A stretch of DNA of 64,000 nucleotides from Escherichia phage vB_EQ1. The number at the start of each line of letters is the position of its first letter. The first letter of the stretch is position 1. The position numbers and the translations under genes are program-made. The DNA lies in sequence record PQ516281; one strand, 5' to 3'. Shown one piece after another: positions 55,509 to 56,823 of the stretch. The notes beneath the pieces are model-generated. The model ran no database searches and was not told the origin of the DNA. It saw only the letters and a program-made list of their open reading frames with translations.

Positions 55509-55651
55509 TTTCACCATATTAATGAACGAATAGCCATTATAACATCTGAAATGAAAAGCACTACTTGGATTAGTCCAAACATCACACCATAGTACAGAAC
55601 CGTAAGCAACAACAAGAGCCCGAAGGCTCCTGCTAAGATTTTCTTAATCAT
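55509..55651 (-). CDS. 47-aa hydrophobic peptide (ac/stp-region), below ORF-track cutoff
   Basis: Hand translation MIKKILAGAFGLLLLLTVLYYGVMFGLIQVVLFISDVIMAIRSLIW; contains a UUCG hairpin so may instead be a UTR. Confidence 0.3.
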
Positions 55652-55798
55652 TACTCGCCTTTTAATACGTTAAGAAGAGCTAAGACCGCTAAGGTACCTT
55701 GTGATACGGCCTGTTGAAATACTGTTGTTTCACCTGTAACTAAAGTGTTAACGAATAAAAACGACCAACACAGCAATGCAATAATCCATGCTACCATT
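55652..55798 (-). CDS. 48-aa hydrophobic peptide, below ORF-track cutoff
   Basis: Hand translation MVAWIIALLCWSFLFVNTLVTGETTVFQQAVSQGTLAVLALLNVLKGE; stop overlaps next ATG (TAATG). Confidence 0.3.
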
Positions 55799-55849
55799 TT
55801 AATTACCTCAAAAATAAATTAAAGGCCTATTAAGCTAGGCCCGTATAAA

Positions 55850-56296
55850 TTAGTAACTCTGCAGAATGAATTTGAAATTATCTGCCAGAAGACGGTTCAT
55901 TTCAGTGAGTGTTTGATACTCTGATGTATGGTTGCGAGTGAATGCCAGAGTCAATTGTCCTTTACCATAACCAGTAGTCAGTGGTTTCATGTTCTTAGCT
56001 GCAACAAAGATTACATCATATTCAATATTGTTAGTGCCCATAGTACGGGCTAGTTGCGAACGGCCTTGACGAATATGAGAAAGAATTGCATCCAACCCTT
56101 GTTTAGAACGTTGACGTCCTACAAAGAATCGTGCTGCTACTTGTCGCCAATCAGATGAACCTTTAACGAAGAAGTAAAAACCTTCACGAGAACGAAACTC
56201 TTTAGAAACTTCAGAACCGTATTCGCCATTACGAACTACTGCAACAACTTCACCACCAACTGTCAGAAGGTCTTTACGAGTTAAATATTTGGACAT
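55850..56296 (-). CDS. ndd: Ndd nucleoid disruption protein
   Basis: 148 aa; blocks [12 protein letters not shown]…LSHIRQ…RSQLART and C-terminus LADNFKF(I/V)LQ(S/A)Y match T4 Ndd. Confidence 0.8.
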
Positions 56297-56339
56297 GCTA
56301 ATTTCCTCAATTGATTAATGTTTTTGTAATCCATGAGAG

Positions 56340-56369
56340 CATTATACTCTGCTCTCAAGAGTTTGTACA
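56340..56369 (-). promoter_or_regulatory. Early-type promoter for ndd
   Basis: GTACAA…TATAAT; arms GAGAGCA/TGCTCTC; same loop as the 27503 copy. Confidence 0.45.
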
Positions 56370-56372
56370 ATT

Positions 56373-56573
56373 TTATTCGGCTATATCAGAACGTTCAAAA
56401 AGCTCTTCAACAGTTAAACATTCAGTGTCATCTTCAATAAAGAATCGAGTCCAACACGTTGGGGCGATACAGTTATGAGTTTGTCCGGCGATAGAAGCTA
56501 CACGAATAAGCTGCTGACCATTATTCAGAACAAATTTTTCACCAATTTCAACATCTTTAAAAAGCTTAGCCAT
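56373..56573 (-). CDS. small hypothetical protein
   Basis: ORF track; early-type promoter upstream. Confidence 0.4.
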   Translation of the reverse strand: MAKLFKDVEIGEKFVLNNGQQLIRVASIAGQTHNCIAPTCWTRFFIEDDTECLTVEELFERSDIAE

Positions 56574-56594
56574 TTTGTGTTCCTTGTGTTTTGA

Positions 56595-56631
56595 TAGGAC
56601 TACTATACCATAATCCTACCGTGATGTAAAC
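56595..56631 (-). promoter_or_regulatory. Early-type promoter
   Basis: GTTTAC…TATAGT. Confidence 0.4.
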
Positions 56632-56823
56632 AATTAAATTACATTAAAATATGTTAAAGCCAACCATGTTCCAGTGAACGAACATGCAATGTAAAAACCA
56701 GTATCACAAATTGTTCTTAGTACAATAAGAAGTGCATTTTTCATAAGTACCTCAACACAATTGAAAATATTATACAAATCATTGGGATACTAAGCAACCA
56801 TATTCCGATCCACATTTTAGAGC

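Follow-up and report, generated by a model that had tools for sequence, protein, structure and literature searches.

Gene content of the interval between gene 52 and o87

The window analysed here, a 64,000-nucleotide stretch of Escherichia phage vB_EQ1 (record PQ516281), comes from a Mosigvirus genome (RB69-like, T4-type). It shows 100% identity to Escherichia phage MRostami-2023e and is at least 95% identical to about 150 Mosigvirus records. As an Ndd-based scan of IMG/VR yielded three loci only, relatives were drawn instead from GenBank phage records. Four micro-ORFs, called here o46, o48, o36 and o28, are located in the 'hyperplastic' stretch from 52 to denB, a non-essential region, together with ndd and two larger genes for soluble proteins (Table 1). 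The corresponding T4 region contains 52.1, ac, stp, ndd and ndd.1 to ndd.6; of these, ndd.2 to ndd.4 have no counterpart in the window.

Table 1. Genes, promoters and hairpins around ndd in vB_EQ1 (positions in the window)
Feature	Position	Strand	Basis or remark
o46, gp52.1 orthologue, 46 aa (Pfam DUF7396, phrog_3595)	55511..55651	-	Pfam, PHROG, BLASTP against T4
11-bp RNA hairpin with UUCG tetraloop, 5' half of o46	55610..55635	-	-16.5 kcal/mol, z = -3.2
o48, orthologue of Ac (acridine sensitivity/'resistance' protein), 48 aa	55651..55797	-	phrog_2501; annotation in RB69 and APCEc01
Terminator-like hairpin with T-rich tail, ndd-ac gap	55823..55842	-	folding; terminator annotated in the WFK record
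ndd, nucleoid disruption protein	55850..56296	-	phrog_1102, E = 7e-56; 58% identical to T4 Ndd
Early-type promoter TGTACA-N17-TATAAT, -10 box within a hairpin, upstream of ndd	56334..56369	-	promoter scan, folding
ndd.1 orthologue, 66 aa, soluble	56373..56573	-	phrog_2183; 45% identical to T4 Ndd.1
PeSL-type early promoter and stem-loop, TTTACA-N17-TATAGT, stem TAGGATTA/TAGTCCTA	56593..56630	-	marks the 3' boundary of the o87-o28-o36 cassette
o36, Mosigvirus-specific hydrophobic orphan, 36 aa (phrog_18561)	56634..56744	-	PHROG, E = 1e-29
o28, Ndd.6 orthologue, 28 aa	56741..56827	-	phrog_8851, same family as T4 Ndd.6
o87, RB69ORF270c family, 87 aa, soluble	56824..57087	-	phrog_2390; 68% identical to the wV7 homologue
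PeSL-type early promoter and stem-loop upstream of o87-o28-o36	57106..57142	-	near-duplicate of 56593-56630

The original prediction placed ORFs of 47 and 48 aa, joined at TAATG, between ndd and gene 52. The pair, the overlap (one shared base) and the length of o48 hold, but the product of o46 has 46 residues. The second predicted pair, of 28 and 36 residues with an ATGA overlap, was found as described, and the peptide sequences quoted for it match the window exactly. An ATGA stop/start overlap also joins o28 to o87, the first gene of an o87-o28-o36 cassette. Shine-Dalgarno sequences of the GAGG type precede o48 and o36, and weaker ones precede o46 and o28. A TTG-initiated form of o36 with 47 residues (56634-56777) was rejected and the ATG at 56744 preferred, given the GAGGT Shine-Dalgarno sequence, the ATGA overlap and the use of this start in annotated relatives. 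Short frames are common in this DNA, with dozens of ORFs of 20-50 aa across all frames of the window.

The micro-ORFs had been described as invisible to the ORF track. They are indeed absent from that list, owing only to its length cut-off, but they are annotated coding sequences in many GenBank relatives, all four in phage 55, and ac and 52.1 in RB69 and APCEc01. The RB69 reference and many other Mosigvirus records leave o36 and o28 without annotation. Several Mosigvirus records also omit 52.1, the hairpin inside it being sometimes labelled a terminator; the WFK and NBG1 records, for example, carry that label and lack the 52.1 coding sequence.

The measure of hydrophobicity was the highest-scoring Kyte-Doolittle window of 19 residues, with values > 1.6 taken as membrane-spanning. 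Three of the peptides exceed this threshold (o46, 2.39; o48, 2.19; o28, 2.62), o36 is borderline (1.56), and the soluble neighbours score 0.3-0.7. The summed Hessa-scale energy of o36 is positive, at +3.5. The idea that all four are single-pass membrane peptides is thus supported unevenly: o46, o48 and o28 are hydrophobic enough and o36 is borderline, while Ac is predicted to form a helix-turn-helix and gp52.1 (o46) one helix of 44 residues. No lipobox motif of lipoproteins was found on inspection by eye, a search of NCBIfam gave nothing meaningful, and a search of Rfam with 55300-57300 gave no match at E <= 1. A literature search on the names ndd.5 and ndd.6 returned only papers on neurodevelopmental disorders.

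Family membership and selection

All four ORFs match existing PHROG families over their full length, and BLASTP against T4 identified orthologues for three of them (o46, o48 and o28). In agreement with the expectation that the frames would be conserved in related phages, full-length versions of o46, o48 and o28 occur in 730, 273 and 464 phage records, respectively, across several genera. The o36 family comprises 152 records, all of them Mosigvirus-like and at least 90% identical. Within the genus, pN/pS is 0.20 for o48 (P = 2e-4), 0.26 for o36 (P = 0.01) and 0.15 for o28, as compared with 0.07 for o87. These synonymous-biased substitution patterns show that selection acts on the peptides.

The o46 peptide (MIKKILAGAFGLLLLLTVLYYGVMFGLIQVVLFISDVIMAIRSLIW) scores 81.1 bits on Pfam DUF7396 (cut-off 27) over residues 1-46 of 46, matches phrog_3595 with E = 1.8e-23, and is 74% identical to T4 gp52.1. 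The two proteins are equal in length, and their genes share the place between ac and gene 52 and a hairpin in the 5' half. Residues 7-18 and the sequence of the embedded hairpin diverge, whereas residues 19-39 are identical, the corresponding codons differing by 11 synonymous and 0 nonsynonymous changes. Comparison of o46 with wV7 gives dN/dS = 0.08. Mosigvirus genomes vary strongly at codon 40, which is hypervariable (A/V/T/D/I). The AlphaFold2 model of o46 is a single helix of 44 residues (2-45, pLDDT 96); it has GxxxG at G22-G26 and, within the membrane segment, an aspartate (D36) that is invariant. As in T4, RB69, wV7, KP179 (present there but unannotated), VR20, WG01 and TH57, the gene 52.1 of the window lies directly upstream of gene 52 and overlaps the preceding small ORF.

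For o48, the match to phrog_2501, the PHROG that also contains T4 Ac, covers residues 1-48 with E = 3.2e-22. The peptide is 60% identical to wV7 Ac and, over 38 aa, 34% identical to T4 Ac (BLASTP, E = 3e-7); a homologous-protein search with o48 returned only 4 near-identical clusters. The gene lies between ndd and 52.1, upstream of topoisomerase gene 52 and on the same strand. A structure model has helices at residues 2-21 and 25-47 separated by a turn, and a conserved motif, V26-x-x-Q29-A30-x-x-Q33-G34, opens the second helix. The predicted helix-turn-helix, the overlap with 52.1 and the invariant W, T and V-xx-QA-xx-QG residues are common to o48 and T4 Ac. The two differ in length (48 versus 51 aa) and in the overlap with 52.1 (1 nt in vB_EQ1, 8 nt in T4), and o48 is an allele of the RB32/wV7/KP179 type with TGETxVF. 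G34 of o48 aligns with G38 of T4 Ac, within the invariant Q-G pair.

The original prediction had pointed to ac and stp as small host-takeover genes of the corresponding T4 region. Of the two, ac has its orthologue in o48, but stp, whose T4 product is the PrrC activator, is absent from the window, where the best tblastn matches of T4 Stp (E = 0.14) fall at unrelated sites. The ndd-ac gap measures 52 bp and contains no ORF (Stp would be 26-29 aa); vB_EQ1 has the terminator-like hairpin where T4 has stp. Stp-like C-termini do occur in VR20, WG01 and TH57.

The match of o28 to phrog_8851 has E = 3.7e-11. Its identity to T4 Ndd.6 is 53.6% over 28/28 aa, with dN/dS = 0.28 and a conserved SIPxIC core, and one transmembrane helix is predicted at about residues 5-25. 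The 'outer membrane protein' label on the T4 entry for Ndd.6/Ndd.5 is an old prediction, and the inner membrane would seem to suit a 28-residue hydrophobic helix better.

By contrast with the other three, o36 is not a T4 orthologue. It resembles T4 and wV7 ndd.5 in being the gene next after ndd.6, with an ATGA overlap, and the last before the next PeSL. No BLASTP alignment to Ndd.5 (32 aa) was obtained at E <= 100, the two belong to different PHROGs (phrog_18561 and phrog_5011), and tblastn with T4 Ndd.5 gave no match at the o36 locus. Orthology of o36 with a diverged Ndd.5 was rejected because this similarity is absent, and o36 is a positional analogue only. An exhaustive HMMER search among 1.84 billion representatives recovered only its own cluster, at a sensitivity that is poor for 36 aa. 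Three genomes carry an in-frame codon deletion in o36, and one record, PECP20, a 1-nt deletion that shifts the frame.

In T4, the orthologous genes belong to the early transcripts (PMC9697503 Table S2). Their peptides were undetected by mass spectrometry, which is expected of products so tiny and hydrophobic but is still a negative result. From the families, gene order, overlapping frames, substitution patterns, promoter and Shine-Dalgarno signals and helical, hydrophobic products, we consider it highly probable that the four micro-ORFs are genuine early genes, three of them orthologues of T4 52.1, ac and ndd.6, and o36 a lineage-specific replacement of Ndd.5. They were in fact already known, three having carried names in T4 since its genome project and o36 being a catalogued genus-specific orphan, so that the original observation was correct but ordinary.

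Promoters, hairpins and cassette structure

The two PeSL-type elements in Table 1 flank the o87-o28-o36 cassette. A third copy of the exact pattern lies at 36562-36597 of the window, whereas 0 are expected by chance. The promoters score 10/12 and the hairpins fold with -13.2 and -13.7 kcal/mol. PeSLs have been described as mobile early promoter stem-loop cassettes of T4-type phages (Arbiol 2010 PMC2839356; Comeau 2014 PMC4122927), with the PST/T4-type consensus TTTACW-N17-TAYWAT (PMC4122927). The vB_EQ1 promoters fit this consensus, have a stem-loop and flank a cassette of small ORFs in a hyperplastic region; they seem to differ in the place of the stem-loop, which surrounds the -10 box and does not lie ahead of the promoter. 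An exchange of ndd.4/ndd.5 serves as an example in Comeau 2014 (PMC4122927). In our comparison, DNA homology to wV7-type phages stops at the o28/o36 junction, and the breakpoint between ndd.5 and o36 is a gene junction inside the cassette and not a PeSL. The intergenic stretch 56297-56372, upstream of ndd, is invariant across 13 genomes.

The hairpin inside o46 is kept in 13 Mosigvirus genomes, and T4, VR20 and KP179 have hairpins of other sequence at the same site of 52.1 (z = -3.3 to -4.4). Some of the conservation of o46 could therefore be at the RNA level. The gene that precedes 52.1 is variable across phages: this 'ac slot' holds a T4-type Ac, an RB32/Mosigvirus-type Ac, or unrelated peptides of 53-54 aa (VR20, WG01).

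Possible roles at the host membrane

The sole phenotype linked to these genes is the acridine sensitivity due to Ac, in T4. A G38R change in T4 Ac gives acriflavine-resistant phage, Ac expression sensitises cells to acriflavine and ampicillin with no outright killing, and Ac has been proposed, from overexpression phenotypes in a 2025 preprint, to inhibit AcrAB-TolC efflux (bioRxiv 10.1101/2025.06.30.662393). The E. coli peptide AcrZ (49 aa), which binds AcrB in the inner membrane, resembles Ac in size, in being an alpha-helical membrane peptide and in its proposed pump target; the likeness is a functional analogy only, as AcrZ assists the AcrAB-TolC pump and Ac would, by the proposal, impair it. 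Comparison of the Ac and AcrZ sequences detected no similarity, and mimicry of AcrZ at the sequence level was rejected on this ground.

Probably, sigma-70-type early promoters, those of the PeSL cassettes, transcribe the micro-ORFs in the first minutes of infection, the ATGA and TAATG overlaps couple translation of each peptide to that of the upstream gene, and the translated peptides insert into the host inner membrane. Ac would be anchored there by its N-terminal transmembrane helix. Its V-xx-QA-xx-QG segment, where helix 2 begins, might then contact a component of the host envelope, most plausibly AcrAB-TolC, so that acridines and similar compounds accumulate in the infected cell, a possibility that we take seriously without quite favouring it. 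The other peptides, gp52.1, Ndd.6 and o36, would most likely bind membrane proteins of host or phage through their transmembrane helices, as suggested by the GxxxG motif and buried Asp in gp52.1 and by the SIPxIC core in Ndd.6, and at least one of the three may be behind the stimulation of phosphatidylglycerol (PG) synthesis mapped in T4.

The last point leads to a more specific proposal, compatible with this general scheme, in which gp52.1, Ndd.6 and/or o36 would be the PG-stimulating factor and act on lipid-synthesis enzymes of the inner membrane. The T4 deletion saDelta9, running from 52.1 through ac, stp, ndd and ndd.1-ndd.6 to denB, is viable and abolishes the stimulation of phospholipid (PG) synthesis; a membrane location is predicted for several products of the interval (PMC6071114). 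The larger proteins of the interval bear no resemblance to lipid enzymes, and of its small peptides, T4 and vB_EQ1 have gp52.1 and Ndd.6 in common. However, the effect, described in T4, has been mapped no more finely than a 3.4-kb stretch with about 12 genes. Moreover, mutants lacking only dCTPase, EndoIV (denB) and Alc also lack PG stimulation (PMC6071114), which points to denB or to an indirect effect. We regard this assignment as unlikely.

A small likelihood also attaches to the idea that the peptides are host-killing or membrane-permeabilising toxins, similar to type I toxins or holin-like peptides, which would serve host shut-off, the timing of lysis or the exclusion of superinfecting phage and not the modulation of specific targets. 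According to Kutter et al. (PMC6071114), cloned copies of many small immediate-early T4 genes kill the host, the peptides form short, very hydrophobic helices, and early work ascribed the Ac phenotype to raised permeability to acridines. Against this stand the sensitisation by Ac short of killing, and the dispensability of the T4 interval, whose loss lowers yield only two-fold (PMC6071114). Conservation is furthermore focused on motifs (QA..QG in Ac; GxxxG...FISDVI in gp52.1) and not on generic hydrophobicity, which suggests specific partners.

The hairpin in o46 raises another, rather improbable option, that gp52.1 could be dual-purpose, its ultra-conserved C-terminal helix, with GxxxG and the buried Asp, being a membrane effector and the hairpin of its variable 5' half, stable but different in each lineage compared, an attenuator. 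If so, gp52.1 might pair, through translational coupling, with whichever small membrane peptide fills the 'ac slot', and the hairpin might control how much transcription of the immediate-early unit carries on into topoisomerase gene 52; the same low probability covers both extensions. In a weaker variant of this reading, o36 may be a Mosigvirus-specific effector with a host target of its own, gained by cassette exchange.

It is very improbable that the micro-ORFs, or some among them, are chance frames left untranslated in DNA that works through regulatory RNA or DNA elements such as terminators and promoter spacers: the abundance of short frames in the window, the strong hairpin of o46 and its annotation in place of a coding sequence, the many records that leave out o36 and o28, the failure to detect the T4 orthologues in the proteome and the frameshift in PECP20 are outweighed by the saturated synonymous divergence of gp52.1 codons 19-39 between genera with zero amino-acid change, by the full-length frames kept across several genera, by the synonymous excess and in-frame 3-nt deletion in o36, by the presence, on the coding strand, of Shine-Dalgarno sequences and of overlaps that couple the frames, and by the phenotype of T4 ac mutations, missense G38R among them.

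We thus return to the reading of the four micro-ORFs as genuine early genes, whose peptides are likely small inner-membrane modulators; a 'membrane-targeting effector' role, as suggested at the outset, is an inference. They belong to the large set of small early 'monkey-wrench' proteins of T4. The practical value of the finding lies in the annotation of o36, o28 and 52.1 where Mosigvirus records omit them. Among the four, Ac offers a tractable case, as a possible phage-encoded inhibitor of an efflux pump.

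The four micro-ORFs and their T4 families

All four small minus-strand ORFs proposed around ndd are real, and the peptide sequences first quoted for them were exact (we name the ORFs o46, o48, o28 and o36 by their length in amino acids). Two do lie between ndd and gene 52, the first of them having 46 residues and not the 47 originally counted. The expected overlaps are also present, TAATG joining the o48 stop to the o46 start and ATGA joining o28 to o36; an 87-aa ORF of the RB69ORF270c family (o87) likewise overlaps o28 by ATGA. Every gene of the surrounding 1.8 kb is on the minus strand. 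This stretch matches Escherichia phage MRostami-2023e at 100% identity and about 150 records of Mosigvirus (Straboviridae, Tevenvirinae), among them RB69, APCEc01, JK45 and SF, at 95% or more.

Each ORF has a full-length match to an existing PHROG. At syntenic positions, o46 shares 74% identity with T4 gp52.1, o48 34% over 38 aa with T4 Ac and o28 54% with T4 Ndd.6, and by every testable criterion of membership these three belong to the named T4 families. The fourth, o36, is already catalogued as a PHROG and annotated as a hypothetical protein. The four ORFs are thus already known and represent no new kind of element; the residual value of the analysis lies in annotation correction and in side observations. 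In RB69 and APCEc01, 52.1 and ‘Ac acridine resistance protein’ are already annotated, and the phage 55 record carries all four ORFs, ribosome-binding sites included. On the other hand, o36 and o28 are left blank in RB69, SF and NBG1, and 52.1 is missing from WFK, NBG1 and p000y.

Two further annotation points emerged. In Klebsiella phage KP179, the record leaves 138 bp empty between ac and gene 52, but the sequence there (L015 2610-2750, +) encodes a 46-aa homologue of gp52.1 with 61% identity. The start of denB (57156-57776, minus strand) is annotated inconsistently, with 158 aa in most relatives. With T4 DenB (185 aa) the alignment, at 71%, begins at window position 57713 and implies a 185-aa product sharing about 65 nt with the RB69ORF272c-like ORF upstream; the NHEP29 record has this long form.

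Features of the ndd region, in transcription order for the genes, and related loci (pN/pS from 13 Mosigvirus genomes)
Feature	Position	Strand	Family or motif	pN/pS
denB	ends 57156	-		
o87	56824-57087	-	RB69ORF270c	0.07-0.11 (range with ndd, ndd.1)
o28	56741-56827	-	phrog_8851 (includes T4 Ndd.6)	0.15, P = 0.045, 5 changes only
o36	56634-56744	-	phrog_18561	0.26, P = 0.01
ndd.1	56373-56573	-		0.07-0.11 (range with ndd, o87)
ndd	55850-56296	-		0.07-0.11 (range with ndd.1, o87)
o48	55651-55797	-	phrog_2501 (includes T4 Ac)	0.20, P = 2e-4
o46	55511-55651	-	phrog_3595 (includes T4 gp52.1) + Pfam DUF7396, 81 bits vs cut-off 27	0.47, not significant
Topoisomerase gene 52	54181-55506	-		
Promoter match	57142-57114	-	sigma-70 type	
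Promoter match	56630-56602	-	sigma-70 type	
Promoter match	56369-56341	-	sigma-70 type	
PeSL-type motif	57106-57142	-	TTTACA-N17-TATAGT + stem	
PeSL-type motif	56593-56630	-	TTTACA-N17-TATAGT + stem	
PeSL-type motif	36562-36597	-	TTTACA-N17-TATAGT + stem	
52.1 hairpin, related locus L003	3291-3345	-		
52.1 hairpin, KP179 (L015)	2615-2669	+		
52.1 hairpin, L016	1206-1260	+		
ac-slot ORF, VR20 (L016)	1040-1204			
ac-slot ORF, WG01 (L017)	978-1139			
ac-slot ORF, TH57 (L018)	upstream of 1201			

The reading frames are conserved in relatives, the families being found in 730 (52.1), at least 273 (Ac), 464 (Ndd.6) and 152 (o36) phage records. Purifying selection was assessed among 13 Mosigvirus genomes (Table) and against more distant phages: dN/dS is 0.28 for o28 against T4 and 0.08 for the whole of o46 against wV7. 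Over codons 19-39, gp52.1 has diverged from T4 at 11 of its roughly 14 synonymous sites, with all of the roughly 49 nonsynonymous sites unchanged. Codon 40 of o46 (55532-55534) accounts for four of its nine nonsynonymous alleles and specifies five different residues (A, V, T, D, I) in Mosigvirus genomes that otherwise hardly differ, so that one hypervariable position seems to adjoin an invariant block of 21 residues. In o36, three genomes carry an in-frame codon deletion, and in PECP20 the frame is shifted by the absence of 1 nt from a T-run (L012 about 1801-1810), possibly a sequencing artefact, possibly a genuine loss. In SF and one IMG/VR contig (L009, L005), the ac stop TAA has become CAA, so that Ac gains one residue and ends at the TGA within an ATGA overlap; the IMG/VR contig (L005) also has a premature stop at codon 38 of o87.

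The proposal that all four are single-pass membrane peptides fared unevenly. The best 19-residue Kyte-Doolittle windows score 2.39 (o46), 2.19 (o48), 2.62 (o28) and only 1.56 (o36), against 0.3-0.7 for soluble neighbours. AlphaFold2 without alignment models o46 as one unbroken helix (residues 2-45, pLDDT 96) and o48 as two (2-21 and 25-47, pLDDT 80). From these scores and helices, a single pass is reasonable for o28, uncertain for o46, unproven for o36 and, in its simple sense, probably wrong for o48.

Early-type promoters and the origin of o36

The coding strand carries all three of the best sigma-70-type promoter matches within 55300-57900. The two upstream ones are near-duplicates in which a TAGGAyTA/TAGTCCTA stem encloses the -10 box, and they fit the PST/T4-type consensus of PeSL (early promoter/stem-loop) cassettes (Arbiol 2010, PMC2839356; Comeau 2014, PMC4122927). 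The resulting motifs (-13.2 and -13.7 kcal/mol) bracket the o87-o28-o36 trio, and a third copy occurs elsewhere in the window, with none expected by chance. A GAGGT Shine-Dalgarno at good spacing precedes o48 and o36; those of o46 and o28 are weaker, and their translation is probably dependent on coupling. The T4 data place the transcripts of 52.1, ac, stp and ndd.2-ndd.6 in the early class; mass spectrometry did not detect the peptides (PMC9697503, Table S2). The 76 bp upstream of ndd (56297-56372), with a TGTACA-N17-TATAAT promoter and a GAGAGCA/TGCTCTC hairpin, is invariant across the 13 Mosigvirus genomes, as against about 10% variable columns in the flanking genes.

PeSL cassettes have been linked to the shuffling of small ORFs, as modules, within the hyperplastic regions of T4-type phages (Arbiol, Comeau, Krisch), the ndd.4/ndd.5 exchange being an example in the 2014 paper. 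The position of o36 is that of ndd.5 in T4 and wV7: it starts in an ATGA overlap with ndd.6 and is the final gene ahead of the next promoter element. Even so, o36 fails as an Ndd.5 homologue, showing no similarity to the T4 protein. All 152 tblastn records of o36 are at least 90% identical and Mosigvirus-like, and its own cluster was the only hit when 1.84 billion representatives were scanned exhaustively with HMMER. DNA homology with wV7-type Tequatrovirus (about 71%) spans o87 and o28 and stops at 56738, at the o28/o36 junction (56738-56744; L008 1804-1810), which places the recombination breakpoint within the cassette, between two of its genes. Past this junction, the T4-type ndd.5 and the Mosigvirus o36 are unrelated. 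Taken together, the shared position, the lack of similarity and the homology stop indicate that o36 is a replacement, not homologous to ndd.5, in a slot that is itself conserved.

gp52.1, its hairpin and the ac slot

Over three genera, gp52.1 keeps MIKKIL, LYYG-xxx-G (a GxxxG motif) and VLFISDVI with a buried Asp; the GxxxG motif and the Asp suggest helix-helix packing with a partner. The 5′ half of its gene contains a stable RNA hairpin (55610-55635, minus strand; UUCG loop, -16.5 kcal/mol), with an 11-bp stem in Mosigvirus. T4, VR20/TH57/WG01 and KP179 have other hairpin sequences in the same 55 nt, equally stable (z = -2.3 to -4.4) and in some cases with a U-rich tract behind them, and the site is the sole variable segment of an otherwise invariant peptide. 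The hairpin has the appearance of an RNA element lying within a coding sequence, a candidate attenuator or stabiliser; some GenBank records label it a terminator and drop the CDS.

The slot upstream of 52.1 is polymorphic, holding a T4-type Ac, an RB32/Mosigvirus-type Ac or, for VR20 and WG01, an unrelated hydrophobic peptide of 53-54 aa, and its ORF overlaps the 52.1 start in every case. TH57, of the same genus as VR20, has an RB32-type Ac. Outside Mosigvirus the slot ORFs end in ...ND*, through read-through of the 52.1 start ATGATTAA.

The T4 neighbour stp, also invoked in the original prediction, has no counterpart in the window, where tblastn with T4 Stp gives nothing credible. The ndd-ac spacer (55798-55849) is just 52 bp long and contains a terminator-like hairpin (GGGCCTA/TAGGCCT with a T-rich tail), which replaces stp in Mosigvirus; stp lies between ndd and ac in T4, VR20, WG01 and TH57.

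Known phenotypes and the conserved residues of Ac

The 52.1-to-denB interval of T4 can be deleted (saDelta9) with a yield of about 50%, and this deletion abolishes phage-induced stimulation of phosphatidylglycerol synthesis, an effect mapped so far to the interval as a whole (PMC6071114). The small membrane peptides are candidates for the factor; denB has likewise been implicated (PMC6071114).

Among the four peptides, Ac alone has a phenotype. Loss of T4 ac, including by the missense change G38R, gives acriflavine-resistant phage, and Ac expressed in E. coli sensitises the cells to acriflavine and ampicillin; it was proposed that membrane-seated Ac impairs AcrAB-TolC efflux (bioRxiv 10.1101/2025.06.30.662393), an idea restated as an assumption in PMC13250531. 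Our alignment of Ac from the window, wV7, T4 and KP179 leaves W11, T18 and the block V26-xx-Q29-A30-xx-Q33-G34 invariant, G34 being the equivalent of T4 G38. The model puts this block in the turn and the first part of helix 2, which argues that the functional surface is the polar segment past the transmembrane anchor and not the anchor itself, and a specific protein contact would fit such a segment better than a generic membrane perturbation. The proposed link to AcrAB-TolC is a tentative one, to which we give slightly less than even chances.
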